DNA of 61,265 bases from Candidatus Acidiferrales bacterium (GTDB lineage Bacteria > Acidobacteriota > Terriglobia > Acidiferrales > UBA7541). The stretch is taken from positions 1-61,265 of the forward strand of contig JBOGNS010000009.1 in NCBI GenBank assembly GCA_050747305.1, written 5' to 3'. Below are positions 5,910 to 60,562 of the stretch, piece after piece (the first letter of the stretch is position 1; each line of letters begins with the position of its first letter). The notes beneath the pieces were generated by a model that saw only the letters and a list, made by a program, of their open reading frames with translations, searched no databases and was not told the origin of the DNA. A program made the position numbers and the translations under genes.

Positions 5910-5996
5910 ACGGCGCTCCTCACTCTCTCGAATCCAACCATTATATGCGTTGCTGACCAATTTCCAAAGAAACGTAGACAGGCGCCGCCATGAAAA

Positions 5997-18157: not shown

Positions 18158-18279
18158 CTGGCACCGCGCGCAGAATAATTCCTTAACCTTTCGCAGCGCA
18201 GGCAACCCGCCTTCATCGCGCTGCAACCAACGAATCAAATCTCGGTCGGATGCTGTTCATCCGCTTCAGGGGTGGGGCG

Positions 18280-21200
18280 ATGCGACAGAAGTGTACATTT
18301 GCGTCTCTTCTCGTAGTGTTTTTGTTTCAGGCAGGATCTTTCGCCACGGCGCGCCTGCGCGTGGATGAGTCTGCGACCACTATCCGCTTCGGCGCAACCG
18401 GCGCGGAAAATCAACTTCAACTCGTGGTCGAGAATCCCGGCAGCCCGCTGCACGTGCGCCTGCAACTCGAATGGCTCGACACGGACGACCGCGTGCGCGG
18501 TCGTATCGAACGTGACGAGCGCTTGCGCGCGGGGCGCAACCGGCTCGTAGTTCGCTTCCCGTTCGACTTCGCGGCGCTGAGGCAAGACGATCGGCGCGAA
18601 TTTCTCTGGTATCGCGTGCAGTATCGAATCGAGCCGGCCTCAGCGGAGCAAAGCTTCGAGCCTGTAATCGGTGTGCTGACCGTCGGGCAAATCAGCCCGG
18701 CGGCATTTGTCTTGCGGCTCGCGCATCCGGCTGGAGTCGCAGCGGGCACCCCGCTGCGAGTCCGTGTACGGTCACTGCACCCGCTCACCGAGAAAGGGGT
18801 TGCCGGCGTTCAACTCAACGGCATCGCAACGTACGAAAACGAAGACTTCGATGCGGTGAAAGTCAGCGCTGGCTCTCGCACCGACAACGACGGCCATGCC
18901 GTGCTGGAATTTCCCCTCCCTGCAAACTTTCACTCGGAAGTGGATATCGAAATCACCGGCCGCCACGGCGGATTCGAGGATGTGGCGGAGTCCACGGCGT
19001 ATCCGGCGGGCCTGCCGCGAATCCTGCTGACCACGGACAAACCCATCTACCAGCCCGGGCAAACGCTGCGCGTGCGCCTGCTGGCTTTCGACGGCGCAGA
19101 ACGCGCGATGTCCGGCCAAGTCGTCGGCGTGCGCGTCGAGGATCCTGAAGGCACGCTGGTGTACCGCGCCGAGCTCACCACTTCGCGGTTTGGTGTGGCC
19201 AGCAGCGAATGGATGGTTCCCGAGAGCCTGCGGCTGGGCGAATACTCCATCCAAGCCTCGCTCGAGGACAGTCCCTTTGAAGATGAAGTGGGAGCTCGCA
19301 AGCTTGTGCGAATCAGCCGCTACGAGTTGCCCGCTTTTACCGTGACCGTGGAGCCTAACCGGCAATTCTATCTGCGCGGGCAGGATGCCGAGGTCCGCGT
19401 GCGCGCCGACTATCTCTTCGGCAAGCCGGTCACGCAAGGACGCGCGCGCATCGTGCGCGAGGAAGGCCGCCACTGGAACTACCGCAAACAGAAATGGGAA
19501 TTCACGGAATCGGAAAAGTATGAAGGGGAAGCTGCGACTGGCGAGTTTCGCGTGACGATTCCTCTGGCCCAGCATCACGACGACTTGAGCGATCACCAGC
19601 GGTTCGACGACATCGAGTACGCCGCCTATCTCACCGATGCCTCCACCGGCCGCACCGAGCAGCGGCGGTTTGCCCTCCGCGTCACGCGCGATCCGATCCA
19701 CATCTACGTGATTGATTCCAACTATGCGGCCGAAGGCGTCCCGCAACGCTTCTATGTTTCCACGTCTTACGCCGACGGCATGCCGGCCTCGTGCGACGTA
19801 GTGGTGCAGCAGGCGCTGCCGGCACAGACTGCGGCCGGCAAGGAGGATGCGCCGGTGTATCGCGACGTCCGCAAGGTGCGCACGAATCGATACGGGCTGG
19901 TGCGTGTGGATGACTTGCTGCTCGCGTGGGACAAGGAGGGCGGCAACAACCTGCTGCTTCATGCCCGCGATGGAAAAGGCGCAAGCGGCAGTCAATCTCA
20001 TCACATCTGGAAATCACCATTTCCGGTGCTGCGCGTTGAGACCAATAAGGCGCTCTACCGCGCCGGCGAGCCCATCGAGATTCGCCTGAAATCGGATGTA
20101 GCAAATGCCACGGCCTTCGTAGATGTAACCGTCGACAACGCAACCGTTACATCGCGGCGAGTGCGGCTCAAGAACGGCCGCGCGTGGCTGTCGCTGCCCT
20201 GGCGATCCGAGTACTCCGGGGAAGTGACGCTGTTTACTTACTTCCTCGGCCAGAATCGCGGCTACTCCTACGAGCGTTCGGCTGCCGCCAGCCACACCGT
20301 GCTCTTCCCTGCCCCGCGCGCGGTTCGACTCGATGTGCGCTGGAGCCAGCCAGAATACCAGCCGGGCGAAAAAGCGCGCGCCGATTTCCGTGTGCGTTTG
20401 CCGGGCGGGCGCATGGCCCCGGCGGCACTCGGGCTTGTGGTCTTCGATAAGGCGGTCGAGGAGCGCGTACGCACCGATACCGATTTTGGCGGGCGCGCGC
20501 CACGCTTCGGGTTCTGCGCGGATTATGAGTCGTGGATCAATGAGCAGGCGGTGGCGGGCATGCGCCGCGCCGATCTCGACGCCCTGGATATGACGCAACC
20601 CTTGCCCGACGGCCTGGATCTGGTGGCGGAGGTTCTGCTTCGCGATGCGCCGGGCTGGCTACGGTTTGACGAAGGCCGCACTTCGACAGACGCAAGCGAG
20701 GCCTACGGCGATTTGGCGCGCCGCCGCGTGCACCACATTCGCGAGGCGCTTGCCGACCATTACAAAGCCATGACCGATTTTCCCGAGGATGCAACTGCAC
20801 TCCGGCGAATCTTGAACGAAGAACATGTGGATTTCGACGCCGCACTCGATCCATGGGGCATGGCCTTCGAGCCGCAGTTCCGTTTCCAACGGGAAAAGAC
20901 GGTGCTCGATTTGCAGAGCCGCGGCCCGGATAAGCAACTCGGCACCGACGATGATTTCAGCGCGCTCTCCACCGGATGGCCATACTTCTTGCCGATCGGC
21001 ACGCGGATTACGGAAGCAGTCGGCGACCATGTGCGGAAGTCAGGCCGGTTTGTGCGCGACTTCAAGACACTGGCATGGCTGATGGGCGCTCGCGGCGTGG
21101 ATCTCACCACTCTCCGCGACCCGTGGGGCTCGCCCTACCGCTTCGAGTTTGATGTGCAGCGCGAGCGCTACACCATCACCGTGGTCAGTGCAGGGCCGGA

Positions 21201-24200
21201 TCGCAAATTTGCAAACCGCGAGCGGACCTGGGGCGACGACTTCGCGCTGTGGACCGTGGCCACCGATTACTTCGCGTCCCTGCGCGAACCCGTGGAGGCA
21301 GCGCTCGCAACTTTTGTGGCGCGCCGCGGACGCTTTTTCGAGAGTGAGCAGGAGGCCGCGCAGGCGCTGGCGACTGCACAGTTTGGCCCCGAGAAGCTGC
21401 TCGATCCGTGGGGCCGCCCCTACTATTTCGAGCTCACCCGGATGGCGCGCTACAGCGACACAGCGTCTGTGCGCTCTTACGCCGACGTGAGCGGGCGCCC
21501 AACTGTACGGCGCACCATCGTTCCCGTTACACAGGTGATGAATTGGATTAACCTGCGCAGCATGGGCCCCGATGGCACGCGCGGCGGCGACGATTTCGAT
21601 GTAGCCAGCTTTCGCCGCCTCGCGCTGGAAAGCGGCGGTACGTTTGAAATGCGCAAGCTTGCCACAAGCCCGCTGCTGCCGGGAAGCACCGGCGCAATCG
21701 TCGGCATCATCACGGATGTCAGTGGCGCAGTCGTCCCGGAAACACAGGTGACAGCGATGACTAACTCCAGGGAAAATACGTTGGAGACTGCAACCAACGA
21801 GGCGGGCGAGTATTTACTGAGCAATCTTCCGCCGGGCTTCTATCGCGTTGAGTTTAAGGCGGCTGGATTCAGGCTCTCGGTTGTCGCGGATGTTCCCGTC
21901 GGCTCGTCGAGTATCACGCGGCTCAACGCAACGTTGGACATCGGTGATGTAACCGCGACCGTCGAGGTGCAGGCCGCAGTGCTCCCACTTCAAACTACTA
22001 ACGCAACCATCGCGGATTACAAGGCGCCGATGAGCACCCGCCCGCGGCCCCCGGGTCCAATCGCCACGCCGCGGTTGCGCGAATACTTTCCCGAAACGCT
22101 CTACTGGCAGCCCGAAATCATCACCGATGCGCAAGGCCGCGCGCGCATCGAGTTCCCACTGGCCGACAACATCACCACATGGCGCATCTCCGCGCTGGCG
22201 TCCACCGAAGACGGCAAGCTCGGGTCGTTTGAAGGCGAGATACGCGCCTTCCAGCCCTTCTTCGTCGAGCACGACCCGCCGCGCGCACTCACCGCAGGCG
22301 ACCAAATCGCCCTACCCGTGGTGCTGCGCAACTATCATGACAAAGCGCAAGCCGTGGACCTCGAGATGCACTCTGCGCCGTGGTTTTCGTTGTTGGGCGA
22401 GGCGCGCAAGCACGTCGACGTGCCCGCCGGCGATTCAGCGCGCGAAATTTTCTCCTTCCGCGCGGATTCTCCGGTGAAGCAAGGCCAGCAGCGCATCACC
22501 GCAGCCGGCCGCAGCGCCGGCGACGCGGTGGAAAAGGCGGTACTGGTACGCCCGGACGGCAACGAAATCGTTATCACAGCCGGCCAGGTGTTCGGCGCCA
22601 CCGCGCAATTTACACTGGAGATTCCACGCCACGCGATTGACGGCTCGACGGAAGCGCAACTCAAGCTCTATCCGAACCTGATGGCTCACGTTGCGGAAAG
22701 CGTGGAGGGAATTCTGCAGCGGCCCTACGGCTGCGCGGAGCAAACCATCTCGTCCACCTATCCCAGCTTGTTGGTTGTGCGTTACGCCAAAGAAGGCGCG
22801 GAGGCGCCGCTGGTGAATCGCGCGCGGCGCTACCTGCGCCTCGGCTATGAACGGCTGCTTGGCTACCGCGCGGAAGGCGGCGGCTTCAGCTATTGGGGCA
22901 AGGGCGAAGCCGACGCGGCGCTCACCGCCTATGCGCTGCGCTTCCTGCGCGATGCCTCCATCGTGATCAGCGTGGATGAGGAGCTCATCCGCTCCACCGG
23001 TGCATGGCTCGCGCAGCAGTTGCAAGCCGACGGGAGTTGGCGCTGGCACAATTGGCATGGCGAAGAGCATCCGCGGCGTTCGCTGATGCAAACGGCATAC
23101 ATCGCGCGTGTGCTCGCAGGGGTCGCCACGACCGCTAACGCGAAGTCCGCAGCGCGCTCGCCCGAGATGCAAGCGCTCGATCGCGCACTCGACTACCTGG
23201 CCGTCCGCGTAGCAGAAATGGACGAGCCGTACGCGCTCGCGTCGTTCGCCCTCGCCGCGGCCGATGCTGGCCGCGAACATCACGCCGCGCAAGCCGTAGC
23301 GCGGCTGCGCACCATGGCGCGTGATGAGGGCGACGGGTCGTATTGGGTGCTGGAAACCAACTCGCCGTTCTATGGCTGGGGGCTTGCCGGGCGCGTGGAA
23401 ACCACGGCGCTGGTGATGCAGGCGCTGCTGCGGGCAGGAACCGTGCTCGACGACGCGCTGGTGAACCGCGGCACGCTTTTCCTGCTGCGCGCGAAAGACC
23501 GTTACGGCGTGTGGCACTCGACGCAGGCCACCGTGCAAGTGCTCGATACGTTGCGGGCCATCATTTCGCACTCGCAGCCGGCCGCAGGCGGTGAGCAGCG
23601 CGCCGAAGTGCTGGTAGATGGCACCGTCGCCGCCACGCTGGCGCTTCCCTCTCCCACGCAGCTCACTGGCCCTGTGGCGATTCATCTCGGCTCGCAACTC
23701 GGCGCAGGCGCGCATCGCATTGAGATTCGGCGGCCGGCCGGCTCGACTGCCGCCAGTGCACAACTTGTGGCCAGTTATTACGTGCCGTGGCGCGAAGTCG
23801 AAAATCGGTCCGGCGCGTTACGTCTCGATGTGCGCTTCGATAAAACCGACGCGCGCGAAGGCGAAGAAGTCCGCTGCAAAGTCGTTGCCGAGCGCATCGG
23901 GCATCGCGGCTACGGCATGATGATCGCGGAGATAGGCCTGCCGCCGGGCGCGGATGTGGATCGCGCTTCGCTGGAACGCGCCAAGGAAAATTCCCGCTGG
24001 TCCCTGAATCACTACGACGTGCTGCCGGATCGCGTGGTGGTTTACCTGTGGCCGCGCGCGGGCGGCATGGAGTTCGAGTTCGTGTTCAAGCCGCGCTTCG
24101 GCATGACGGCCAAAACCGCGCCATCCCAACTCTACGATTACTACAACCCGGAAGCGCGCGTCGTGCTGGCGCCGGCGCTCTTCCGCGTGGCCAGCGGCAC

Positions 24201-24225
24201 ACCGCAGCTTCGCGCCGCCCAGTAG
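18280..24225 (+). CDS. alpha-2-macroglobulin/thioester-containing protein family, very large secreted protein
   Basis: ATG at 18280 preceded by GGGGTGGGG; signal-like MRQKCTFASLLVVFLFQAGSFATA. MG-domain hallmarks (RYELPAFTVTVEP, YFPETLYWQPEI...NITTWR). Thioester motif PYGCAEQT (Cys at 22732-34, Gln at 22741-43). Also has a CarboxypepD_reg-like insert and three GspG-like modules. Confidence 0.85.
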   Translation: MRQKCTFASLLVVFLFQAGSFATARLRVDESATTIRFGATGAENQLQLVVENPGSPLHVRLQLEWLDTDDRVRGRIERDERLRAGRNRLVVRFPFDFAALRQDDRREFLWYRVQYRIEPASAEQSFEPVIGVLTVGQISPAAFVLRLAHPAGVAAGTPLRVRVRSLHPLTEKGVAGVQLNGIATYENEDFDAVKVSAGSRTDNDGHAVLEFPLPANFHSEVDIEITGRHGGFEDVAESTAYPAGLPRILLTTDKPIYQPGQTLRVRLLAFDGAERAMSGQVVGVRVEDPEGTLVYRAELTTSRFGVASSEWMVPESLRLGEYSIQASLEDSPFEDEVGARKLVRISRYELPAFTVTVEPNRQFYLRGQDAEVRVRADYLFGKPVTQGRARIVREEGRHWNYRKQKWEFTESEKYEGEAATGEFRVTIPLAQHHDDLSDHQRFDDIEYAAYLTDASTGRTEQRRFALRVTRDPIHIYVIDSNYAAEGVPQRFYVSTSYADGMPASCDVVVQQALPAQTAAGKEDAPVYRDVRKVRTNRYGLVRVDDLLLAWDKEGGNNLLLHARDGKGASGSQSHHIWKSPFPVLRVETNKALYRAGEPIEIRLKSDVANATAFVDVTVDNATVTSRRVRLKNGRAWLSLPWRSEYSGEVTLFTYFLGQNRGYSYERSAAASHTVLFPAPRAVRLDVRWSQPEYQPGEKARADFRVRLPGGRMAPAALGLVVFDKAVEERVRTDTDFGGRAPRFGFCADYESWINEQAVAGMRRADLDALDMTQPLPDGLDLVAEVLLRDAPGWLRFDEGRTSTDASEAYGDLARRRVHHIREALADHYKAMTDFPEDATALRRILNEEHVDFDAALDPWGMAFEPQFRFQREKTVLDLQSRGPDKQLGTDDDFSALSTGWPYFLPIGTRITEAVGDHVRKSGRFVRDFKTLAWLMGARGVDLTTLRDPWGSPYRFEFDVQRERYTITVVSAGPDRKFANRERTWGDDFALWTVATDYFASLREPVEAALATFVARRGRFFESEQEAAQALATAQFGPEKLLDPWGRPYYFELTRMARYSDTASVRSYADVSGRPTVRRTIVPVTQVMNWINLRSMGPDGTRGGDDFDVASFRRLALESGGTFEMRKLATSPLLPGSTGAIVGIITDVSGAVVPETQVTAMTNSRENTLETATNEAGEYLLSNLPPGFYRVEFKAAGFRLSVVADVPVGSSSITRLNATLDIGDVTATVEVQAAVLPLQTTNATIADYKAPMSTRPRPPGPIATPRLREYFPETLYWQPEIITDAQGRARIEFPLADNITTWRISALASTEDGKLGSFEGEIRAFQPFFVEHDPPRALTAGDQIALPVVLRNYHDKAQAVDLEMHSAPWFSLLGEARKHVDVPAGDSAREIFSFRADSPVKQGQQRITAAGRSAGDAVEKAVLVRPDGNEIVITAGQVFGATAQFTLEIPRHAIDGSTEAQLKLYPNLMAHVAESVEGILQRPYGCAEQTISSTYPSLLVVRYAKEGAEAPLVNRARRYLRLGYERLLGYRAEGGGFSYWGKGEADAALTAYALRFLRDASIVISVDEELIRSTGAWLAQQLQADGSWRWHNWHGEEHPRRSLMQTAYIARVLAGVATTANAKSAARSPEMQALDRALDYLAVRVAEMDEPYALASFALAAADAGREHHAAQAVARLRTMARDEGDGSYWVLETNSPFYGWGLAGRVETTALVMQALLRAGTVLDDALVNRGTLFLLRAKDRYGVWHSTQATVQVLDTLRAIISHSQPAAGGEQRAEVLVDGTVAATLALPSPTQLTGPVAIHLGSQLGAGAHRIEIRRPAGSTAASAQLVASYYVPWREVENRSGALRLDVRFDKTDAREGEEVRCKVVAERIGHRGYGMMIAEIGLPPGADVDRASLERAKENSRWSLNHYDVLPDRVVVYLWPRAGGMEFEFVFKPRFGMTAKTAPSQLYDYYNPEARVVLAPALFRVASGTPQLRAAQ

Positions 24226-41634: not shown

Positions 41635-42789
41635 CTAGCGACAACAGGTTGCGAGGGCGAGCCTGTGGAGGACTTCAGCGCATGTGGCCACCGACCCGAG
41701 CTCGACGTATTCATCCGCACCATGCAGCCCGCGGCCGCGCGGGCCGAAAACCACGCCGGGAATTCCGGCCTCTGCCAGCAACGCGGTGTCGGTCCAGAAT
41801 GACATGCCGCAAACGTCGGGTGAGCCGGTTACCTGCCGCAACGCCGCAGCAGCAGCCGTTGCGATCGGCGCGGTCGAAGCGATTTCATACGGCTGGCGCG
41901 ACGCCAGCAACTTCACTTCGCTGCGGAAATCCCGATCGGCGCGCGCGAGCGAGGCGATCAGGCTGCGCAGCTCGCTTTCGATCTGGGCATCGGATTCCCC
42001 CGGCAGCGTGCGCCGCTCCACGTGCAAGCGGCACTCCGCCGGATAGCTCGAGAGCTCGTGTCCGCCGCTGATGAGTGACGCATGCACTGACGCGCGGCCC
42101 AGCAGCGGGTGAGGCGTGGAAACCGCCAGGCCCGCATCGAAAACTTCCAGTTGCGCGAGCACGCGGCCCATGTGCGCGATGGCATCGCGGCCTTCCTCCG
42201 GCAGGCTGCCGTGCGCCGCGCGGCCGCGCGTAGTCACTTCCAGCCATGCGTAACCCTTGTGCGCGATGCACAGACGCAGGTCCGTCGGCTCCATCACCAC
42301 TGCCGCTTCGGCGGCAACGCGCTTCACCAGGGCTTGGGTGCCGATGCTGTTGCATTCTTCGTCCACCACTGCAGCGATCACCAGCGGCCTGCCGAGTTTC
42401 GCCTTCTGCTGCGCCAAACGTGCCGCGGCAGCGCACATTGCCGCCACGCCGCTTTTGATGTCGAGTGCGCCGCGGCCGTAGAGGCGGCCGTCGCGCTCGC
42501 GCGGCGTGAATGGCTCCGGCATGTCGCCCGCGCCGACCGTGTCCATGTGCGCCACAATCAGCAACGCTGCGCGCCCGCTTTCAGGCCCGAGCCGCGCAAT
42601 CACATTTGGCCGGCTGAGCGTTTCATCGCTGCTTGCTTCCTGTAATTCGGCTTCCACGCCGTGCTTCGCAAGCCAGTCGCGCAGGAAGTGCGCTGCCTCG
42701 GCCTCGCCGCGCGCACCCGGCGCCAGCGATGGATTCACCGAATCAATCGCCACCAAATCGCAAAGCAAAGTGTGCCCGAGCATCTGCAT
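41635..42789 (-). CDS. M20 family metallopeptidase (ArgE/DapE-like deacylase)
   Basis: 384 aa. LIVAHMDTVG, VVDEECNSIG and a dimerisation-domain layout typical of ArgE/DapE. Confidence 0.8.
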   Translation of the reverse strand: MQMLGHTLLCDLVAIDSVNPSLAPGARGEAEAAHFLRDWLAKHGVEAELQEASSDETLSRPNVIARLGPESGRAALLIVAHMDTVGAGDMPEPFTPRERDGRLYGRGALDIKSGVAAMCAAAARLAQQKAKLGRPLVIAAVVDEECNSIGTQALVKRVAAEAAVVMEPTDLRLCIAHKGYAWLEVTTRGRAAHGSLPEEGRDAIAHMGRVLAQLEVFDAGLAVSTPHPLLGRASVHASLISGGHELSSYPAECRLHVERRTLPGESDAQIESELRSLIASLARADRDFRSEVKLLASRQPYEIASTAPIATAAAAALRQVTGSPDVCGMSFWTDTALLAEAGIPGVVFGPRGRGLHGADEYVELGSVATCAEVLHRLALATCCR

Positions 42790-42791
42790 AG

Positions 42792-43090
42792 GTAGGGGAA
42801 GGCCCCTGTGCCTGCCCGCTCCGGTGCTGCCTCGCTCCGGTGCTGCCCGCTCCCGTGCTGCCCGCTCCCGTGCTGCGTCGCTCGGGTGCTGCCCCGCTCC
42901 CGTACTGCCCCGCCCCTCTGCCTGCCCCGCTCCGGTGCCTGACCCCGTTTACCCTGAGCTCGCGCACAGCGAGCGAAGGGTGCCTGCCCTTTCTCGCTGC
43001 GATGCCGCACCTTCGCACGAAAGGAACGCCGCTTCTTCCCACCCAGATCGCCCTCGCGGAAGAAGTGGCGGCCACAGGGGCCGCTCCTAC
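42792..43090. repeat. 299-bp GTAGG...CCTAC-bounded composite element containing about 8 degenerate tandem 15-16-bp units
   Basis: GTAGGGGAAGGCCCCTGTGCCTGCCC at 42792. Tandem GCTCC(G/C)GTGCTGCC(C) units across 42817-42945. Several hairpins. Ends in CCACAGGGGCCGCTCCTAC at 43090. Confidence 0.8.
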
Positions 43091-44364
43091 GAAAGCACGG
43101 TCCCGCCGAACAACAGTCCGGGGCCCAGCGACGCGACAAAAATCGGTCCCGCATTGCGCCCGGCAGCGCCCGCCGACGCAAGTACCTGCGCCAGCGCCAC
43201 ACCGCAAGTCGAAGAGCCCAGATTGCCGTACGTGCGCGCCACCGGCGGAAATCTCTCCGCCGGGACGCCAAGCTGCTTCGCCAGCACGGCAACCAAGCGG
43301 GGGTTCGGCTGGTGCGTGGCAAATCCCAATGCTGACTTACGACGGAAGCCCGTGCGCAATTCAAGATCGGCAATCAACTCTTCGAGCTTGCCGACCGCGG
43401 CGCGCGAAAGCGATTCTCCTTCAAAGACCAAATCAAGCCCGTTGCGCTCGTTCATCCCGACGCGAATGGCTGCGGCGGCCGCCGCATCGCAGCCCAGGGC
43501 AACTTCCCCAACGCGGTAGTGCCCGCCCTGCCCATCGCCAGCCCCGCGCAACACGAATGCGCTGGCCCCATCGCCAAACAGCGCGCCGAATTCGCCTTTC
43601 ACGCGCGCCGGCGTAAGCTGGCGGCTATGTACGTCCGCAGTCACGATCAGCACGGTGCGAAAACGTCCGGTGAAGATGAATTGCTGTGCGACGGCCAGCG
43701 CGTTGATCACACCAAGGCAAGCGCCGCCAATATCCAGCGCCGCGGTGCGCTCATCGGCCAGCAATTGCGCGTGCAGCCGCGCACCGAGCGAAGGATAGCC
43801 AACGTGTGTCTCGCTGGTTGCGATCACGCAATCCACGTCGCCGATGCCCACGCGCGCAGTGGCCAGCGCTGCCTCCGCAGCCTGCATCGCCAGCGTGACC
43901 TCATCTTGCCCTTCCGCGACGCGCGCCACAGACTCAATGCCCGCGCCTGTGGTTATCTTGCCGCGCTTCAGCGCAAACTCGGTCTCCAGTTCCGCCGCAC
44001 TCACGCGCCGCGATGCAATCGCCGTGCCCCAGCCTGATACCGCCGCAGCAAAACCGCCTGCGGAATGCACCATGGGAGCGATTGCGGGGGCGGCCATAGT
44101 TTCCACGCGAGAGCCTTCAAGAGCTGCCACCATGGCTTTGATCGAGCGCGGTTGGTCGAGCATGCGCTCGCCGAAATCCGGATCGCCGCTGGCCGCTTCG
44201 ATGCAGCGAATCACGCCGACCCACGCCATCGAGTCCACTGCTCCGCTCTCCACCACGTCTTCCTCTGGAGCAGGTGCCTGCGCTCCCTGGGACATCTCAC
44301 GGCGTATGCATTGCTCCACGATTTCCTCTGCGCGCTGCTCGCTGATCTTTTCGCCTCGACTCAT
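43087..44364 (-). CDS. carrier-protein-like domain fused to a KASIII (FabH-like) condensing enzyme
   Basis: 425 aa. The N-terminal roughly 85 aa resemble an ACP/PCP around GAVDSMAWVGVIRCIE (Ser codon 44230-32). The remainder has the KASIII triad context DIGGACLG (Cys), THQPN (His) and YGNLGSST (Asn). Confidence 0.8.
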   Translation of the reverse strand: MSRGEKISEQRAEEIVEQCIRREMSQGAQAPAPEEDVVESGAVDSMAWVGVIRCIEAASGDPDFGERMLDQPRSIKAMVAALEGSRVETMAAPAIAPMVHSAGGFAAAVSGWGTAIASRRVSAAELETEFALKRGKITTGAGIESVARVAEGQDEVTLAMQAAEAALATARVGIGDVDCVIATSETHVGYPSLGARLHAQLLADERTAALDIGGACLGVINALAVAQQFIFTGRFRTVLIVTADVHSRQLTPARVKGEFGALFGDGASAFVLRGAGDGQGGHYRVGEVALGCDAAAAAAIRVGMNERNGLDLVFEGESLSRAAVGKLEELIADLELRTGFRRKSALGFATHQPNPRLVAVLAKQLGVPAERFPPVARTYGNLGSSTCGVALAQVLASAGAAGRNAGPIFVASLGPGLLFGGTVLS

Positions 44365-44365
44365 C

Positions 44366-45088
44366 TCAGACCCGGGACGCCTCGAACTCGCCCACCCACG
44401 ACTTGCGCGGCAACGGAAAGAGGGTATCCACCATCAACTGGCAGCGGCCCCAGCGCGGAGGATGCGGGCGCGTCAGGCCGATGCGCACAAACAAGTCCGG
44501 CTCGGATTGCAAGCGCTCGCCCAGATAGCGATTGAGGCGCTGAAAACGGTTGGCGCCCTCTATTTTTCCCAGCAGCGTCTCTACATAGCGGTGCCAACTG
44601 CGATCCACGACCGGCAGGTCCGGCAGCAAATCGCCCGAAGCCAGCGCAACATGCGCCCGAAGCTGCGTGGCTTCCCACTTCAATCGCACGCGGCCGGCGC
44701 GTGCGCCGCAAATCGAGCGGCACCCTTTAGGGGCGTGAATCGAAGCGCCGGTCTTCCCGGGCCGCACCGCGCAGCCAAACAATTCCGAAACGCGTGGCGC
44801 CATTTCCGCCTGCGCCATACACGCCAGCAACTCCTCTTCGGAGAGGTAGCCGGCTTGCCCAAGCACGCCCCCGGTCAGCCGATCCTCAACGTGCGGCCGA
44901 ATCACCTCAACCGCGGTGAAATTGAATTGAAGCTTATCTCCCCGTCGATAGGCGAAGCTTTGCGGCCAGGCGTGGCCCGACGGCGGCATGGGACGAACCG
45001 ACCGAAAGCCGTTGCCGTGCGGCTCGAGTCCGATTACGCAGTAACCGCCGGCCATGCGCGTGATGTCACTGAGAATCAGTTCGGTCAT
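44366..45088 (-). CDS. hypothetical protein (no family recognised)
   Basis: 240 aa from the ATG at 45088 (MTELILSDITRMAGGYCVIGLEPHGNGFRSVRP...). Balanced composition, unlike the antisense ORF. The start overlaps the upstream gene by 23 nt, and the stop is 1 nt from the downstream start. Confidence 0.6.
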   Translation of the reverse strand: MTELILSDITRMAGGYCVIGLEPHGNGFRSVRPMPPSGHAWPQSFAYRRGDKLQFNFTAVEVIRPHVEDRLTGGVLGQAGYLSEEELLACMAQAEMAPRVSELFGCAVRPGKTGASIHAPKGCRSICGARAGRVRLKWEATQLRAHVALASGDLLPDLPVVDRSWHRYVETLLGKIEGANRFQRLNRYLGERLQSEPDLFVRIGLTRPHPPRWGRCQLMVDTLFPLPRKSWVGEFEASRV

Positions 45089-45587
45089 CGAGGGCTCGCT
45101 GGGCTTTGCGAGATTTCTTTTTGTGTGGCTCGGAAACAAGGTGACGGATCTCGATGTCATGGCCCTGTCCGCGCCAATGCTCAGCGCAAAGTTCCGCCAC
45201 AAGCCGGCGATGGCATTTCTCCGGGCCAGGTTCAGAGCATAACAACGCCACTGTGCCGGTGAATTCGCGCGCATCGAGCGAGCCGGGGATGTTGCGCTCG
45301 CGCATCAGCGCGAGGAACGCGGGCTCGTACTGCGGCCAATCACGCGTGGCGCGGTATGCTGCGCGGATTTCAGGCGACGGCGCGAGGCGTAGCTCGTGGA
45401 CGTAGGCAATACCGGCAACGGTGCGGAGAAAAAATTCGATGTCAGGATGCTTTGCGTAACCGGAAAGCTGCCCGCCGCGGTTTTCGCGCACATCGATCAC
45501 TTTCTGCACGCCAGCTTCCGTAAGCAGGCGGAAAAAATCTTCCGCGCTCTTCCCCGCGAAACCGATAGTGCAGAGCGTGAAGTGCAT
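45066..45587 (-). CDS. DUF488 family protein
   Basis: 173 aa. MHFTLCTIGFAGKSAEDFFRLL...VIDVRE... and the C-terminal hallmark LLCSEPGPEKCHRRLVAE. Confidence 0.8.
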   Translation of the reverse strand: MHFTLCTIGFAGKSAEDFFRLLTEAGVQKVIDVRENRGGQLSGYAKHPDIEFFLRTVAGIAYVHELRLAPSPEIRAAYRATRDWPQYEPAFLALMRERNIPGSLDAREFTGTVALLCSEPGPEKCHRRLVAELCAEHWRGQGHDIEIRHLVSEPHKKKSRKAQRALDDRTDSQ

Positions 45588-45600
45588 CGGCGGGCATAGG

Positions 45601-46215
45601 CTACCACACGTCTACGGCTTGCGGGTCGGCTCGAAAGGCGCACTTCTCGGCCTGCGCGACGTATGCATCTTCCAGCGACCCTTGGCGGTCAGCCGCAAAA
45701 AGCGAATCAGAACGCACGTCGCTGAAATGCACGGCGGCAAGCAGGCGGTCTTCGGCCTGCTGCTGCGATTCCAGCACAGCATCCTTGCGGATATGGTGCG
45801 GCTCGATCCCCAGCGCGATCAGCTCGGGGCAAATCATCAGGAAGCGATGACAGGTGATGGGGTCTTCTTCGGCGCACATCAGTACGAGTGGCTGCTTTTC
45901 CAGCTCCAGCGCAACGCGCTCGAGGCCCGCGCAAAAACCGTAGGACTTGCGCCGCGCCCTGTAATTCACGAGGCCGTCAGCGCGATAGGCTTTGGGATCG
46001 TCGGGCCGCCCGCCTAATTCCTCGCCGAGAAAAAGATACGCGAGGCCCGCATCGCGCAAGCCCATCTCAAACTCCGGCTGGCTGAACTGCGGATGGCGCA
46101 TGCTGCGCGGCCGGCTGCGCACGTCAGCCACGGCCCGTACGGCATGCTGCTGCAGCGCATAAACGAAATGAGGCAGCGAGAGATTCGAATGGCCGATGGT
46201 GAAGAGGGAGTGCAT
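45601..46215 (-). CDS. DUF488 family protein (divergent paralogue)
   Basis: 204 aa. LFTIGHSNLSLPHFVYALQQHAVRAVADVRS... and LMCAEEDPITCHRFLMI. Confidence 0.8.
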   Translation of the reverse strand: MHSLFTIGHSNLSLPHFVYALQQHAVRAVADVRSRPRSMRHPQFSQPEFEMGLRDAGLAYLFLGEELGGRPDDPKAYRADGLVNYRARRKSYGFCAGLERVALELEKQPLVLMCAEEDPITCHRFLMICPELIALGIEPHHIRKDAVLESQQQAEDRLLAAVHFSDVRSDSLFAADRQGSLEDAYVAQAEKCAFRADPQAVDVW

Positions 46216-46230
46216 GACGATTGAGCTCGC

Positions 46231-48819
46231 CTACAGCGGCACGCGGCGCAGACGCAGCGCGTTCATAATGACGGAAACGGAGCTGAACGTCATCGCCACG
46301 CTGGCGATCATCGGGCTCAGCAGCAAACCAAAAAAAGGATACAACACGCCCGCCGCAATCGGCACGCCCAGCAAATTGTATATGAACGCGAAAAACAAAT
46401 TCTGGCGGATATTGCGCATCACCGCCCGGCTCAACCGTCGCGCGCGCACAATTCCATTCAAGTCGCCCTTCACCAACGTCACCGACGCGCTTTCCATGGC
46501 CACGTCCGTGCCCGTCCCCATGGCGATGCCAGCGTCGGCCTGCGCCAGCGCCGGCGCATCGTTGATGCCATCGCCCGCCATGGCCACGCGGCGCCCTTCG
46601 CTTTGCAGCTTTTTCACCGCCTCCACCTTGTGCTCCGGCAACACTTCCGCTTCGAACTGGTCGATGCCCAGCCGCCGCGCCACCGATTCCGCCGTCGCGC
46701 GATTGTCTCCTGTGAGCATCACAACCTTTACGTCCTCCGCGTGCAATGCGTCGATGGCGCGCGGCGTGCTCTCCTTGATCGGATCGCTCACGCCCAGCAG
46801 CCCGGCCGGCCGCCCATCGATGGCCACGAACATCACCGTCTGCCCCTCGCGCTGCAGCGGCCCCGCCTTCGCTGCAAACCTTCCATCGCTCGCGCCGACT
46901 TCCTCGAGCAACCGCGCGTTGCCCACCGCTACCGCTTTGCCTTCCACCGTCGCGCTCACGCCTTTGCCCGTGAACGAACGAAAATCGTCCGCGCGCGCCA
47001 GCGCCACTCCTTTTTCTCTTGCGCCCGCCACAATCGCGGCGGCCAGCGGATGTTCGCTGGCCTGCTCCAGGCTGGCCGCCAGCCGCAGCAGCATCGCTTC
47101 GTCGAAACTATCGAGCGGCTGCACCGTGACCAGCTTCGGCTTGCCTTCGGTCAGCGTGCCGGTCTTATCGATCACCAGCGTATCAATTTTCTCCAGCACC
47201 TCGAGCGCCTCCGCGTTTCGCACCAGCACGCCGGCTTGCGCCCCGCGCCCCGTGCCTACCATGATGGACATCGGCGTGGCCAGTCCCAGCGCGCACGGGC
47301 ACGCGATAATCAGCACCGCCACCGCATTCACCAGTGCGTGTGCCATGCGCGGCTCCGGGCCAAAGAGGCCCCACACAATCGCCGTGGCCACCGCCACCAG
47401 CACCACCGCCGGCACGAACCACGCAGACACCGTGTCCGCCAGCCGCTGGATTGGCGCGCGCGACCGCTGTGCCTCGCTCACCAGGCGCACGATTTGCGCC
47501 AGCAGCATGTCGGCGCCCACGCGCTCCGCTTCCATCACAAAGCCGCCGGTCGCGTTCACTGTGCCGCCCGTGACTTTGCTTCCCGGCTGCTTCTCCACGG
47601 GCATCGACTCGCCGGTCACCATGGATTCATCCACCGCGCTGCGCCCTTCGCGCACCCTGCCATCCACCGGAACTTTCTCGCCCGGGCGCACGCGCAGCAT
47701 GTCGCCGGGATGCACTTGCTCCAGCGGCACATCGCGCTCTTCTCCGCTCGCATCAATCAGCCGCGCCGTCTTCGGCGCCAGTCCCAGCAGCGCGCGGATC
47801 GCGCTCGAAGTCTGGCTGCGCGCGCGCAACTCCAGCACTTGTCCCAGCAGCACCAGCGTCACAATTACCGCCGCTGGTTCGAAGTACACCGCTGGCAAAC
47901 CAGTACGAGGATCTCGAAACGACTCGGGGAACGCAGCGGGAAACAACACTGCGGCTACGCTGAAGAAATACGCCGCGGCCACTCCCAGCGCGATCAGCGT
48001 GAACATGTTCAGGCTGCGGTTCACCACCGACTGCCAGCCGCGCACAAAAAACGGCCAGCCGCCCCACAACACCACCGGCGTTGCCAGCGCAAACTGCAGC
48101 CACACCGCGCCCGCGCCCAGCCACACCTGCAGCGGCTTGCCCGGCAACATCTCGGAGATCATCAGCGCCAGAATCGGCGCCGTCAGCGCCGCACTCACCC
48201 AGAAGCGCCGCGACATCTCGCGCAACTCCGGATTCTCTTCCTCCGCCGTCACCGTGCGCGGCTCCAGCGCCATCCCGCAAATGGGGCACGACCCCGGTTC
48301 GGTGCGCACAATCTCGGGATGCATCGGGCAGGTCCACTCCGTGCGCGTCATTGGTGGTGCGACCGTCGCAGGTTCCAACGCCATTCCGCACTTCGGACAC
48401 GCGCCCGGCCCCTTCTGCCGCACCTCGGGATCCATCGGGCAGGTGTACTCGATTTCGCTCGCGCGATGTAGGACAGGCACTCCTGCCTGTCCGCCTTTCT
48501 TGTGCTCACCGGTAACGCGACGCGCGCCCCGCCCCGTGGCCTGGGTCACGTCTTCCTGCGAAGCGTGTGTTGCTCCACGCTGTTCGTGCTCGCCTGCGCC
48601 GTGCGACGATTCGTCGGGCTTTCCCTTGGCTGCTGCCCTCGCGGCGTAACGCTCTGGCTCCGCCTCAAACTTAGCCAAGCAATGCTTGCTGCAAAAATAG
48701 TAGGTCTGCCCGGCGTGCGTCGCCGTGCCCGCCGCCTTCGCCGGGTCCACCGTCATCCCGCACACCGGATCAATGGCCGCAGCCTTCCCCTGCGACGGAT
48801 GCATCGGCAAATCTCTCAT
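46231..48819 (-). CDS. copA: copper-type P1B heavy-metal translocating ATPase
   Basis: 862 aa. CPC metal site ([13 protein letters not shown]), [16 protein letters not shown]-terminal YHS/TRASH-like CGMTVDP...YYFCSKHC plus two YTCPM-x-PE...CPxCGMALEP modules. No MxCxxC motif. Confidence 0.9.
48468..48492. repeat. REP hairpin GTAGGACAGGCACTCCTGCCTGTCC inside the copA coding frame
   Basis: Identical 25-mer to those at 14183 and 24222. On the minus strand it is translated as [10 protein letters not shown], between the YHS-like domain and the first CPxCGM module. Confidence 0.85.
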
Positions 48820-48869: not shown

Positions 48870-48895
48870 GTGTGGAGTGCGGCGGCTTGTTTACC
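48870..48895. repeat. truncated GGAGTGCGGCGGC-family REP
   Basis: GTGTGGAGTGCGGCGGCTTGTTTAC. Compare the full copy at 49368-49400. Confidence 0.6.
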
Positions 48896-48989
48896 CTTCG
48901 TTCGCTGGAAGCCAACGAAGCTCCTGCCGCCTTCTGAGCGGCCGAGTGCCCAGTCCCGCAGCCCAAGTCCCTCATTATATAATCGCCGC

Positions 48990-49364
48990 GTGACTCGTCC
49001 CGACGCCGCGCACCGCATCAAAAGCTACTCCAGCGAAACCGGCTACACCTTCCAATACTACTTCCACGAGGTCAACAAATCGCGTCGCGGCTTCGCAGCC
49101 GGCAATGAATACGTCTTCATGATTTCCGCCGACCGCAAAACGATGTTCCCACTGCGCATTTTCGTCCGCGCCGACGCGGTGCGCCGCTGGGGCCAGCAGG
49201 TCGGACGCCCGTTGAGCGGCACCGAGGAATACGCCGCAGCCAAGATGCGCCTGTTTCAGGCGCTCGACGAAGTCGAAGCGCTGGCACAATCACCGCCGCA
49301 GGCCCCTGAGCTGGAAGTGAACAGCTCCAATCTCGACGACCTGCTGCGCCGCCTCGACATTTGA
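48990..49364 (+). CDS. hypothetical protein
   Basis: 124 aa from the GTG at 48990 (VTRPDAAHRIKSYSSETGYTFQYYFHEVNK...). The longer ORF from 48870 runs through REP sequence. A perfect TATAAT lies at 48978-83. Confidence 0.45.
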   Translation: MTRPDAAHRIKSYSSETGYTFQYYFHEVNKSRRGFAAGNEYVFMISADRKTMFPLRIFVRADAVRRWGQQVGRPLSGTEEYAAAKMRLFQALDEVEALAQSPPQAPELEVNSSNLDDLLRRLDI

Positions 49365-57395: not shown

Positions 57396-58514
57396 TCAGA
57401 CATAAGGCAACGGACCCGGGTCCCCCATTGCCTCCAGGAGATGCTTCTTGGTGAACTCCAGGGCACGGAGGGATTTGTGAACCCGCACGGAAACGCCGAG
57501 GGCCCGCGCAATCGGATCCAGGACGGGCATGTACGCGGCGTTCCCTACGCGGATTTCCCGTGGCAACATCCGTCCACTCTCAATAGCGTTCAGGACCACA
57601 TTGGCCAGCGCCTCGCCGGTGGAGGCTGACGGCAGGGAAAGCTCCGGCGGGTATGCGAAGGCCGTTTGGGCATCGACGGCAAGCGCCATGCGAAAACAGG
57701 CCTTGCGCTGATTTCTATCGCCAATCATCCCCGCGCCGTGGAAATGGTCCACCTCCAACACCACAGCCCTCCGAGGATACTGGCCCTCTCGAATTTTCTG
57801 GAGGCGCGACTCATCCACGGCGGGACACTCCAGGGGCGGCGCAGGACTCGACTTCACCTGAGTGGCCTCGATTCGAAATTCCGGTTGACTGCCCGCTCCG
57901 TCTACTCGCGATAATACTGGATAAGTATCCGGACTGCTCCAGTAAGACGCGCCCGAATTGGCCGCAACCAGATCGCAGATGGTGATCACTGCCCGCTGGC
58001 ATTCGGCCAAGGCGAGCGCTTCCTCCTCGGTGACATACCAGGGGTGATATCCCGGTCGGATCGCCCGGAAAACAGGCACCAGAGCCCCTCGCTTCAAAGC
58101 AAGATCCAACCCGCGAAATACCTGCCGATCCGCCGCCGTCAACTCGGCGATTCGGACGAATTCCACTGAAACGCTGCGCTGCGATGCCAGGAATTCGCCC
58201 ATTGTTACGGGCTTACCGGCCTCAAGCTTCCGGAACAGGCGGAAGCTCTCCTCACCCACATACGCGTGCAAGGCAAACACCTGCCCCGCTTGACCCATGA
58301 CCGAGCAATGACACATTGCGGCAGATACGGGGTCCTTGACCAAGACCAATTCGCTTTCGTTCAGCACATCCCAGGGGCGGCGAAGAAACAATTGCGCAGC
58401 GAGCTCGCAGAGCCGCTCCATGGTCTCGCGGCGTGGAGCAGCTTCATCGGCAAGCTCTTTCACGAAAAAACGATCGGCTGGATCACTCGAAAGTGCTGCG
58501 GCCGTATGTGGCAT
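57396..58514 (-). CDS. hypothetical protein
   Basis: 372 aa from the ATG at 58514 (MPHTAAALSSDPADRFF...). Coding-like composition. No family recognised with confidence. Confidence 0.55.
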   Translation of the reverse strand: MPHTAAALSSDPADRFFVKELADEAAPRRETMERLCELAAQLFLRRPWDVLNESELVLVKDPVSAAMCHCSVMGQAGQVFALHAYVGEESFRLFRKLEAGKPVTMGEFLASQRSVSVEFVRIAELTAADRQVFRGLDLALKRGALVPVFRAIRPGYHPWYVTEEEALALAECQRAVITICDLVAANSGASYWSSPDTYPVLSRVDGAGSQPEFRIEATQVKSSPAPPLECPAVDESRLQKIREGQYPRRAVVLEVDHFHGAGMIGDRNQRKACFRMALAVDAQTAFAYPPELSLPSASTGEALANVVLNAIESGRMLPREIRVGNAAYMPVLDPIARALGVSVRVHKSLRALEFTKKHLLEAMGDPGPLPYV

Positions 58515-58612
58515 GGATGCGGGTCCTTCTGTCTGCTTTGACGACCGATGAGGATAGCACGTTATCGAACGGAATGCGGTTTCCCGCATGGCCCTTCAGG
58601 TCGAGCCGACTA

Positions 58613-60562
58613 ATGCCGGCACGCAAGCCGCGTCGTATACTCCTGGGCGTGACATCGGGGAACTCACTCCTGAACGCCCTGCGTCGGTGTTGGGGTTACG
58701 ACTCCTTCCGCCCCCTGCAAGAACGCATTGTGGGCAGCATTTTGGCCGCGAAGGACACCTGCGTGGTGATGCCCACGGGCGGCGGCAAATCGCTGTGCTA
58801 CCAACTGCCCGCCGCGCTGATGCCCGAAAAAACGGCCTTAGTTGTGTCGCCGCTGATTGCCCTGATGCAGGATCAAGTGGCGCAGCTCGAGCAAATCGGG
58901 ATTCCCAGCGCGGCCCTCAATAGCACGCTGCCTGCTGACCAGCAAGCCCGCGTGATGCGCAATGCTGCAAAGGGGGAGTACCGCCTGCTCTATTTGTCGC
59001 CGGAGCGGCTAGCACGCAACGATTCTCTCGCCTGGCTGGCGCAGGTTCCCGTTTCGCTCTTCGTGATTGACGAGGCGCACTGCATCTCCGAGTGGGGACA
59101 CGAATTCCGCCCTGAATACCGCCAGCTCAGCCGCCTGCGCGAGCGCTTTCCCGGCCCGCCGATTGCCGCCTTCACGGCGAGCGCCACTCGCCGGGTGCGT
59201 CACGACATCATCGAACAGCTCCATCTCCGCGATCCGCACAAATACATCGCCAGTTTCCACCGTCCTAACCTGCGCTACGCCGCGCTGCAATGCTCCGCGT
59301 ACGATCAAAGCGCGCTGCTGCTCAGCGCCCTGCGCGCCTACCCGCAAGGCAACATCATCGTCTACGCCCCAACCATCGCCAGCGTCGAAACTACCGTTGA
59401 CTTTCTCGAAGAGCGCGGCATCCCCGCCGTCGCCTACCACGGTCAGATGGACGCGCCCTCCCGCCGGCGCAATCAGGAACGCTGGATGTCCGACGAAGTG
59501 CGCGTGCTCGTCGGCACCATCGCCTTCGGGCTGGGCATCAACAAAGCCGCGGTGCGCGCCGTGATTCACCTCTCGCTGCCCAAATCCATCGAGCAGTATT
59601 ATCAGGAAGCGGGCCGTGCCGGACGCGACGGCCTGCCTTCCGACTGTGTGATGCTCTGGCAAAAACGCGATGTGGGGCTTTTGACCTACTTCATCCAGCA
59701 GATCACCGACCCAGCGGAAGCCGAACGGGCCTGGCAGCGCTACCGCGACATCATCCGCTTTGCGGAATCCAAAGCTTGCCGCCATCGCCAAATCTGCGCG
59801 CACTTCGGCGAAATTCCCAAATGGACTTCGTGTCGAGCCTGCGACGCCTGCGGCGTGCGCCCCGCCTGGCTCACACAACCGCTTGACGAGCAGCAGCCAC
59901 GCCACTCTAAAAAGCGAAAGCGCGGAACTGCCGCGCCGCAGCGTGTTTTCTCAGAAGGGCCCGCCGGCGCTTCCACCGCCTCGGCCGATCATACCGAGCT
60001 GCGGGAATATCTGCGCCAGTGGCGCCGCGAAGCCGCCGGGCGCCTCGGCATTCCCGCCTTCACAGTGATGCACGATTCTTCGCTCGAAGAGATCTGCCAA
60101 AAGCGCCCGCAAACGCTGGCCCAACTCCGCCTTGTTTTCGGCTTCGGCGAGCACAAAACCAACGCGTACGGCACGCAAATCCTCGAAACTCTGGCAAAAT
60201 TCCAACACGGGGCAAGAGCCAGCACCGCGCTGGTCGGCAAGCCGAAGCCGGCCGAAGAAACCGCACAACTACTCGCGGCGGGGCGCACGTTGCAAGAGAT
60301 TGCCAACCTCCGCGGGCGCAGGCTCGCCACCGTCGTGGCGCTGGTCGCAGAAATGGTCGAGCGCGGCGACCTCCAGTTCCAGCCCGCGTGGCTCGACGCC
60401 CACAAGTTCTCGCAAATCGAAGTCGCCTGCGCCGCCCACGGCCTCGACCGTCTCAAGCTGCTCAAAGACGCCCTGCCACCCGAAATCACGTACGACGAAA
60501 TCCGCCTCGTCGTTGCCCACCGTCGCGCCCTGGCAAACATTGCCGGAAACGGTGCATCCTAA
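58613..60562 (+). CDS. recQ: ATP-dependent DNA helicase RecQ
   Basis: WGYDSFRPLQ, Walker A MPTGGGKSLCYQLPA, DEAHCISEWGHEFRPEY, a Zn-binding Cys cluster (CRHRQICAHFGE...CRACDAC), and an HRDC-like region followed by a C-terminal HTH-like tail. Confidence 0.9.
   Translation: MPARKPRRILLGVTSGNSLLNALRRCWGYDSFRPLQERIVGSILAAKDTCVVMPTGGGKSLCYQLPAALMPEKTALVVSPLIALMQDQVAQLEQIGIPSAALNSTLPADQQARVMRNAAKGEYRLLYLSPERLARNDSLAWLAQVPVSLFVIDEAHCISEWGHEFRPEYRQLSRLRERFPGPPIAAFTASATRRVRHDIIEQLHLRDPHKYIASFHRPNLRYAALQCSAYDQSALLLSALRAYPQGNIIVYAPTIASVETTVDFLEERGIPAVAYHGQMDAPSRRRNQERWMSDEVRVLVGTIAFGLGINKAAVRAVIHLSLPKSIEQYYQEAGRAGRDGLPSDCVMLWQKRDVGLLTYFIQQITDPAEAERAWQRYRDIIRFAESKACRHRQICAHFGEIPKWTSCRACDACGVRPAWLTQPLDEQQPRHSKKRKRGTAAPQRVFSEGPAGASTASADHTELREYLRQWRREAAGRLGIPAFTVMHDSSLEEICQKRPQTLAQLRLVFGFGEHKTNAYGTQILETLAKFQHGARASTALVGKPKPAEETAQLLAAGRTLQEIANLRGRRLATVVALVAEMVERGDLQFQPAWLDAHKFSQIEVACAAHGLDRLKLLKDALPPEITYDEIRLVVAHRRALANIAGNGAS

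Follow-up and report, generated by a model that had tools for sequence, protein, structure and literature searches.

The window analyzed here is the whole stretch of 61,265 nucleotides (nt) from a Candidatus Acidiferrales bacterium (contig JBOGNS010000009.1, positions 1 to 61,265 of the forward strand), and this study concerns a cassette of four genes, named G1 to G4, carried by its minus strand (Table 1). According to both the table of open reading frames (ORFs) and the sequence, these genes are consecutive and closely packed. G1 and G2 are separated by 13 nt, G2 and G3 overlap by 23 nt and a single nucleotide lies between G3 and G4, in agreement with a preliminary description of this DNA whose packing, coordinates and spacings were all recovered. 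The long ORF of G3 extends over 44366-45274, and the ATG at 45088 (MTELILSD) is the start in nearly all homologues. G1 and G2 encode DUF488 proteins, G3 a protein assigned below to the DuOB (dual OB-fold) family, and G4 a protein in which a carrier-protein-like domain precedes a β-ketoacyl-acyl carrier protein synthase III (KASIII, hereafter also KAS) domain. From sequence comparisons, G1-G3 are a permuted PDC-M45 triad. PADLOC already lists this triad as an untested phage-defence candidate, and only its coupling to a carrier-KASIII protein is undescribed; no description of the four-gene arrangement was found in the searchable literature.

The DUF488 pair, the DuOB protein and their relation to PDC-M45

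The DUF488 domain is widespread and has no assigned function; the DuOB domain was defined only recently. Both G1 and G2 passed the gathering cut-off of the Pfam DUF488 model PF04343 (76.1 and 58.7 bits, respectively, for a cut-off of 22.2 bits), and G2 also matched PF22751 (DUF488-N3a, the "active N3" subclade) with 37 bits. The two proteins are 27% identical and have in common the residues D31, R33, Y60, C114-x-E116, P119 and C122-H123-R124, so that the paralogy proposed for them in the preliminary description, together with the conservation of CxE and CHR, is borne out. G1 retains the GHS, DxR, CxE and CHR motifs; G2 retains the last three, the His-Ser of the GHS motif being missing. Against the PADLOC models, G1 matched PDC-M45B over positions 4-196 of the 204 in the profile, with 181 bits and E 3.9e-54, and G2 matched PDC-M45C over positions 2-139 of 145 (151 bits, E 3.7e-45), both at full length. 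Searches of NCBIfam with G1, G2 and G3 returned zero matches, and no solved relative was found in the sequence and profile searches of PDB with DUF488.

The third gene had been described as matching nothing. This has to be corrected, as profile comparisons place G3 as a divergent member of the DuOB family. Taken alone, G3 scored 13.5 bits (E 0.075) on the Pfam DuOB model (PF22557), under the gathering threshold of 27 bits, and its 55%-identical homologue P0021 reached 28.6 bits. A profile built from 58 members of the G3 family and run against 1.8 billion representatives reached Pfam-positive DuOB proteins of 230-260 aa with E values of 1e-16 to 1e-8. Besides, the alignment of the G3 family with 46 DuOB proteins by hhalign gave a probability of 99.95% (E 1.1e-37) over 217 columns; this match was obtained only against the 46-sequence alignment, the probability being 0.1 against one single canonical DuOB sequence. 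The motifs common to the two sets are ITRM..C.(I/A)G, RP, PH.ED, RS(I/L), LP..D, GL.RP and CWL.

The AlphaFold2 (AF2) model of G3, with a predicted local distance difference test score (pLDDT) of 95.3, is strand-rich and organized in two lobes. Its top Foldseek matches were the tandem-OB DNA binders HIN-200, RPA and baculovirus LEF-3, with E values of only 7e-4 to 2e-3. G3 is like these proteins in having two consecutive OB barrels, but the template modeling (TM) score is only about 0.3 and the identity 6-8%. In contrast to them, DuOB bears a near-invariant PH.ED motif as well as RS and GL.RP motifs; these are not known as typical features of OB proteins that merely bind, and they may point to catalysis or to the binding of a ligand. 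A nucleic-acid role of DuOB is supported by the 535-aa protein P0309, in which DuOB is fused to an HRDC domain, a nucleic-acid-binding module of RecQ and RNase D.

With G1 corresponding to PDC-M45B, G2 to PDC-M45C and G3 to DuOB, the family of PDC-M45A, these three genes, adjacent on one strand with gaps of +13 and -23 nt, represent the PDC-M45 triad in permuted form. The triads found on plasmids of Allochromatium tepidum (pAt1) and Agrobacterium tumefaciens (pAt1D1108a) are made of the same three families in one tight same-strand operon, and scored E 1e-68 to 1e-88 on PDC-M45A, B and C. The gene order is A-B-C in L088, L089 and L184, whereas it is B-C-A in the window. Moreover, canonical PDC-M45A proteins scored E 3e-75 to 2e-88 on the PDC-M45A model, for which G3 is too divergent: it had no PADLOC match at E<=10, PDC-M45A models included. 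With the A model failing and the order permuted, the cassette would not be called as PDC-M45 by PADLOC. The two also differ by their location, since PDC-M45 lies in plasmid defence islands, where the triads adjoin type III CRISPR and CBASS loci, whereas the window cassette is chromosomal and vertically inherited between housekeeping genes, and by the fourth gene that is added in the window.

DUF488 and DuOB genes were also observed elsewhere. DuOB occurs on small plasmids (10-47 kb) of Citrobacter, Salmonella, Acinetobacter and Moraxella. On Bosea plasmids (L185, L186), solitary DUF488 genes of PDC-M45B type are flanked by blocks of three hypothetical genes and by a gene for a dcm cytosine methyltransferase, the one in L185 being additionally near AbiEii and DUF262 genes; these loci are a further DNA-modification or restriction-type context for DUF488.

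A carrier-like domain fused to a KASIII domain

The C-terminal part of G4 matched the Pfam domains ACP_syn_III (55.2 bits) and ACP_syn_III_C (36.1 bits), a profile search of PDB with G4 retrieved FabH at E 3e-38, and the Foldseek comparison with FabH structures gave a target-normalized TM score of 0.88 for an identity of 21-28%. Cys216, His351 and Asn381 are invariant in 51 G4 homologues and align to Cys112, His244 and Asn274 of E. coli FabH. G4 is thus like the FabH/KASIII enzymes (E. coli FabH, PDB 1HN9; Aquifex, 2EBD) in its thiolase fold, in the presence of both Pfam KASIII domains and in having Cys-His-Asn in register. It differs from them by the motifs HQPN and GNLGSS, which are HQAN and GNTSAAS in FabH, by the additional N-terminal domain, by its position outside any fab cluster, and by scores under all NCBIfam FabH cut-offs, the best being 141.8 bits for a cut-off of 249 bits. 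Hence, by curated cut-offs, G4 is not a FabH. No PADLOC model matched G4, or the neighboring copA and M20 peptidase genes, at E<=10.

In the AF2 model, the N-terminal part of G4 forms four helices (residues 9-23, 45-59, 64-67 and 75-84) followed by a linker, residues 88-103, with a pLDDT below 50. Ser45, which is the serine of the "DSM" motif, opens helix 2. D44, S45 and W48 do not vary in either of two alignments of the G4 family (51 and 22 sequences), with M46, V49, R53 and E56 additionally invariant in the smaller one; D44 is replaced by Glu in a few family members. When a profile of the domain was compared with PDB, all eight matches at E<=1 were carrier proteins (DltC, peptidyl carrier proteins (PCPs) and a putative acyl carrier protein (ACP)), and although these matches were weak (E 0.058-1), the modified serine of the matched proteins aligned to Ser45. 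Like the type II carrier proteins (DltC, PCPs, ACPs), the domain has about 85 aa, four helices and an Asp-Ser pair at the N-terminus of helix 2. Unlike them, it has no Pfam PP-binding match, it reaches E values of only 0.06-1 in PDB, it is fused to KASIII, and its family was found only in these carrier-KAS proteins. Indeed, the hits of the carrier-domain profile were confined to N-terminal fragments of these proteins, with no other architecture among them, a weak result as the full-length proteins were oddly unlisted.

The predicted structure, the invariant Asp-Ser and the carrier-only PDB matches lead us to favor a carrier-protein-like N-terminal domain despite the missing Pfam match. The carrier-KASIII fusion announced in the preliminary description therefore stands for the KASIII domain with its intact Cys/His/Asn, and for the carrier-like fold with its D-S motif, but not for the PP-binding profile, the lack of which that description had set down as a refutation of its hypothesis. 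No paper on ACP-KASIII fusions was found in the searchable literature.

Table 1. Coordinates of the four cassette genes, of the parts of G4 and of neighboring features in the window.
Feature	Position	Strand	Description
G1	45601-46215	minus	204 aa, DUF488 protein, PDC-M45B type, conserved C-terminal helical extension
G2	45066-45587	minus	173 aa, DUF488 protein of "active N3" subclade, PDC-M45C type
G3	44366-45088	minus	240 aa, divergent DuOB (dual OB-fold) protein, PDC-M45A counterpart
G4	43087-44364	minus	425 aa, carrier-like domain and KASIII
G4 residues 1-87, carrier-protein-like four-helix domain	44104-44364	minus	Putative phosphopantetheine Ser45, codon 44230-44232
G4 residues 88-103, disordered linker	44056-44103	minus	Recurrent deletion/replacement/recombination boundary
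G4 residues 104-425, FabH-fold KASIII domain	43087-44055	minus	Cys216 43717-43719, His351 43312-43314, Asn381 43222-43224
copA, P-type Cu ATPase with YHS and two HMBD domains	46231-48819	minus	Pfam; context gene upstream of G1
M20 peptidase	41635-42789	minus	Pfam; context gene, member of the HD_4-KAS-M20 backbone
GC-rich tandem repeat	42812-42947		Tandem Repeats Finder; in the G4/M20 spacer

Conservation of the unit and the boundary at the linker

A G3-seeded pattern and tblastn scan, run on one genome per GTDB species, yielded 107 G3 relatives, from which 80 loci were kept; with seven further loci obtained by look-ups of metagenome and metagenome-assembled genome (MAG) contigs, 87 related loci were available. 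The order G1-G2-G3-G4 and the common strand are kept in every one of them that is not cut by a contig end, with identities of 37-68% for G3 and 49-68% for G1. As this arrangement recurs in every sufficiently long locus, it is not due to chance, and the co-conservation of the four genes, on which the preliminary description had staked its proposal, was observed. The closest relative of G3 in the databases, 93% identical, bears the annotation Candidatus Acidiferrales, Acidobacteriota, and almost all of the 80 scanned loci come from MAGs of the Acidobacteriota/Terriglobia (Acidiferrales/Acidoferrum), with a few odd bin labels. The same acidobacterial cassette and the same flanking synteny are present in four contigs (L013, L030, L034 and L053) whose bins bear the labels Cybelea, Betaproteobacteria, Limnocylindria and Verrucomicrobiia; these contigs are probably mis-binned.

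In about 55 loci, the unit lies between an isc/PMSR/bPH_2/BaxI/HD_4 block and either an M20 peptidase gene or a pseudopilin cluster. In a divergent subgroup, the complete unit, including a carrier-KAS protein of 443 aa, is found in a second context composed of serA, BamD, rpe, STAS and FKBP genes. The association was also seen from the other side: in an independent metagenome sample seeded with KAS motifs, G3 was present in 62 of the 63 carrier-bearing loci with enough upstream sequence.

The relatives of G4 further show where the unit comes apart. KAS genes devoid of a carrier domain encode proteins of 309-356 aa sharing 63-73% identity with the KAS part of G4, and in a neighbor-joining tree of the clade nearest the window they are interspersed among carrier-KAS genes, which points to several independent events. 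The segment from G1 through the carrier is deleted in L091, L096 and L098, and that from G2 through the carrier in L103. This leaves HD_4-KAS-M20 in L091 and L092, where the triad is absent, methyltransferase-KAS-M20 in L096 and L097, HD_4-KAS with a 4-nt overlap in L098 and L099, and the C-terminus of G1 directly followed by a KAS-only gene in L103. In L093, G1 is followed by PDC-M19A, PDC-M19B and then a KAS-only gene: at 4712-5943, PDC-M19A (a DUF488, E 1.5e-33) and PDC-M19B (263 aa, E 1.3e-34) replace the G2-G3-carrier segment. PDC-M19 is a DUF488-based two-gene candidate of PADLOC (DUF488 and a partner of about 260 aa) which fills here the exact position of G2-G3-carrier; it differs from the window cassette in lacking a carrier domain and in having a partner that, by sequence, does not belong to DuOB. 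The L093 site thus behaves like a swap point for DUF488-based cassettes. In L091, L093, L096, L098 and L103, the right-hand ends of these changes all fall in the linker between carrier and KAS.

On the other side of the linker, the gene order is more stable. A backbone made of HD_4 (a RelA/SpoT-type HD hydrolase), KASIII and M20, often with 4-nt overlaps, is found with or without the triad (L098, 4507-6002; L181, 1235-4362; L001, 8725-11171), and the M20 gene immediately follows that of KAS, which it frequently overlaps by 4 nt, regardless of the presence of the triad. This backbone may be a small-molecule pathway of its own.

The comparison of L183, which has HD_4, the triad, carrier-KAS and M20, with its sisters L181 and L122, which have HD_4, carrier-KAS and M20 and no triad, gives a finer view of the same boundary. 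The KAS domains of L183 and the triad-less sisters are 97-98% identical and the carrier domains 77-80%, with otherwise-invariant carrier positions altered in the sister pair (D44E, M46K/R, V49A/D, R53G/A). Carrier decay after loss of the triad was considered as the cause of this 77-80% identity and rejected, as the synonymous divergence (dS) is also 3-5 times higher and omega in the L183/L181 carrier region is 0.17-0.31. Between L183 and L181, dS amounts to 0.41-0.94 in codons 1-120 of G4, against values of 0.22, about 0.17 and 0.13 for HD_4, KAS and M20, respectively, with a break at about codon 120. As dS of the carrier is raised relative to both flanks, the carrier segment has had a different history, with a recombination boundary at the linker; on these estimates, such a boundary rather than neutral decay is the main cause of the divergence. 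Hence, the deletions, the PDC-M19 swap and the dS jump all end at the linker, which groups the carrier with the triad module. In evolutionary terms, the carrier domain belongs to the variable DuOB/DUF488 module and the KAS domain to the stable HD_4-KAS-M20 backbone.

Regarding the immediate neighborhood in the window, the stop codon of copA (46231) lies 15 nt from the start of G1, and the two are probably co-transcribed. The adjacency pointed out in the preliminary description is real in the window and in L100, the one close relative examined (89% identical, 92-nt gap). It does not extend to the other related loci, where the upstream gene is HD_4, BaxI, PMSR or FKBP, and copA is not part of the system. 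A link with copper homeostasis was rejected, copA being upstream in the window and L100 only. At the other end, the "299-bp repeat composite" of the preliminary description contains a genuine repeat, although it is in fact a 297-nt G4/M20 spacer with a tandem array of 136 nt (period 15-16, about eight copies, unit approximately CTGCCCGCTCCGGTG). No second occurrence of the unit was found within the window, and the spacer measures 0-440 nt in relatives. The repeat was rejected as a system component because it is local and not conserved. The surrounding 20 kb contain pseudopilin genes, the M20 peptidase gene, copA, a gene for an extracytoplasmic function (ECF) sigma factor and other chromosomal genes; no mobile-element gene (integrase, transposase) and no other defence gene was found in it. 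The absence of lipid genes nearby, claimed earlier, holds within about 10 kb of the cassette, in which no fab or lipid gene was found. Between copA and the ECF sigma factor gene, a 164-aa ORF (48870-49364, plus strand) has neither a Pfam nor a PADLOC match. Two other genes of the window are unrelated to the cassette: one encodes a bacterial alpha-2-macroglobulin of 1991 aa (18250-24225) with an internal stretch resembling protein G of the type II secretion system (T2SS), and the other, near the window end (58433-60562), a RecQ helicase with HRDC and HTH_40 domains.

Possible function and alternative explanations

The explanation that we put forward, tentatively and as a possibility rather than a probability, is that the cassette is a chromosomally fixed derivative of PDC-M45 type, proper to a Terriglobia lineage of soil Acidobacteria, which has been joined via the carrier-like domain to a resident FabH-like KASIII. 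In such a system, the tandem-OB protein G3 would bind nucleic acid and supply target recognition, and the DUF488 paralogues G1 and G2 would be the catalytic part. Ser45 of the G4 carrier would be phosphopantetheinylated and the KASIII domain would load or extend the carrier in cis. For this purpose, Cys216 would be acylated from acyl-CoA, the phosphopantetheine on Ser45 would be loaded with malonate, and a decarboxylative condensation would yield a β-ketoacyl-S-carrier. The acyl or β-ketoacyl thioester might then be handed to the triad, which would use or sense it as a co-substrate or as a licensing signal, the whole possibly serving in conflict or defence. A more specific proposal, that the DUF488 pair draws on the KASIII-built carrier thioester for the acylation, or another covalent modification, of a nucleic acid or nucleotide bound by DuOB, is highly doubtful. 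If true, it would be a carrier-dependent nucleic-acid modification or defence chemistry without described precedent, and the first biochemical activity for the large DUF488 family.

Several observations weigh against a PDC-M45-type system coupled to KASIII. The Pfam PP-binding model (PF00550) matched neither full-length G4 (E<=0.01) nor its residues 1-99 (E<=10). The canonical PDC-M45 copies L088 and L089 have no carrier or KAS partner. In Citrobacter (L187, 3986-5653) and Acinetobacter (L188, 3998-5686), DuOB and a DUF488 protein of 146 aa form a triplet with DUF4326, so that the third partner of the DuOB/DUF488 core is variable. The KAS domain is intact without the triad in several independent lineages, implying that its function is independent of the triad, and carrier-KAS persists without the triad in L122 and L181, where an omega of about 0.3 indicates that some constraint is still exerted. 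In addition, the locus is vertically inherited among housekeeping genes, outside defence islands and with no adjacent mobile-element genes; the G3 family has no member in the viral contigs of IMG/VR, and canonical DuOB had no match in phage genomes. In the searchable literature, neither a biochemical characterization of DUF488 nor a functional study of DUF488, DuOB or PDC-M45 was found. The PDC systems themselves are 145 untested "guilt-by-embedding" candidates, among which PDC-M45 is a three-family cassette (bioRxiv 10.1101/2024.01.29.577857).

Some of these observations would also be accounted for by a mere juxtaposition without functional link, a PDC-M45-type cassette having landed in a resident HD_4-KAS-M20 operon and been passed on as part of it, with a carrier that serves the KAS only and is lost together with the triad because it is its neighbor. 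This is illustrated by the KAS-only orthologues that persist with intact catalytic Cys-His-Asn in the HD_4-KAS-M20 setting, often with 4-nt overlaps, by the entry of another DUF488 system, PDC-M19, at the same site in L093, and by the carrier-KAS genes without triad in L122 and L181. However, the full four-gene unit with its carrier also occurs in the second context, where HD_4 and M20 are lacking, and the association reaches 62 of 63 loci in the KAS-seeded sample. Moreover, at least five independent events share a right-hand boundary at the linker, and not inside or before the carrier, and the divergence of the carrier region follows the history of the triad side instead of that of the KAS side. 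We consider an unlinked juxtaposition rather unlikely.

The cassette is inherited vertically throughout a class-level clade and occupies conserved chromosomal sites next to isc, PMSR, BaxI, serA, BamD and rpe, with no integrase, transposase or other defence gene nearby and with the G3 family absent from viral contigs; this is consistent with a domesticated housekeeping role. The triad and carrier-KAS would then perform a non-defence nucleic-acid transaction, for example to repair, modify or process the DNA or RNA of the cell itself, possibly with an acyl-thioester. This is judged unlikely; the repeated independent losses and the one swap for another candidate defence cassette are typical of accessory conflict genes, and the closest canonical relatives lie in plasmid defence islands. 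As for the two hypotheses of the preliminary description, that of a modification or defence-type system fits best, given the relation to PDC-M45 and its plasmid defence islands, whereas a self-contained acyl-forming module is not the best description of the whole cassette because the KAS domain persists without the other genes in relatives. In such a module, the carrier-KASIII protein would make a small β-keto product for the DUF488 and DuOB proteins to tailor, bind or regulate. The intact Cys-His-Asn residues and the carrier-like domain in cis would suit this chemistry, and small molecules could be substrates of the neighboring HD_4 and M20 hydrolases. Yet the triad is autonomous elsewhere with no KAS present, the tandem-OB fold of G3 resembles that of DNA binders, the unit holds no fabD, ketoreductase (KR), dehydratase (DH), thioesterase (TE) or adenylation genes, and KAS functions without all the other genes in relatives. 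A self-contained acyl or ketide module therefore appears quite improbable.

Returning to the coupling of a PDC-M45-type triad with KASIII, the lineage has acquired and kept the carrier and the condensing enzyme across two genomic contexts and down to about 37% identity of G3, which suggests thioester or acyl chemistry as an entry into the function of DUF488 and DuOB. The loci with KAS alone, with carrier-KAS and no triad, and with PDC-M19 in place of the triad constitute natural comparison genotypes. A real link would tie enzymology of the fatty-acid type to a conflict system directed at nucleic acids; without such a link, the locus would still clearly exemplify how a defence-type cassette can become fixed within an operon of housekeeping genes. 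The cassette, which is not a new category, is thus a specific biochemical lead into two uncharacterized families, DUF488 and DuOB.

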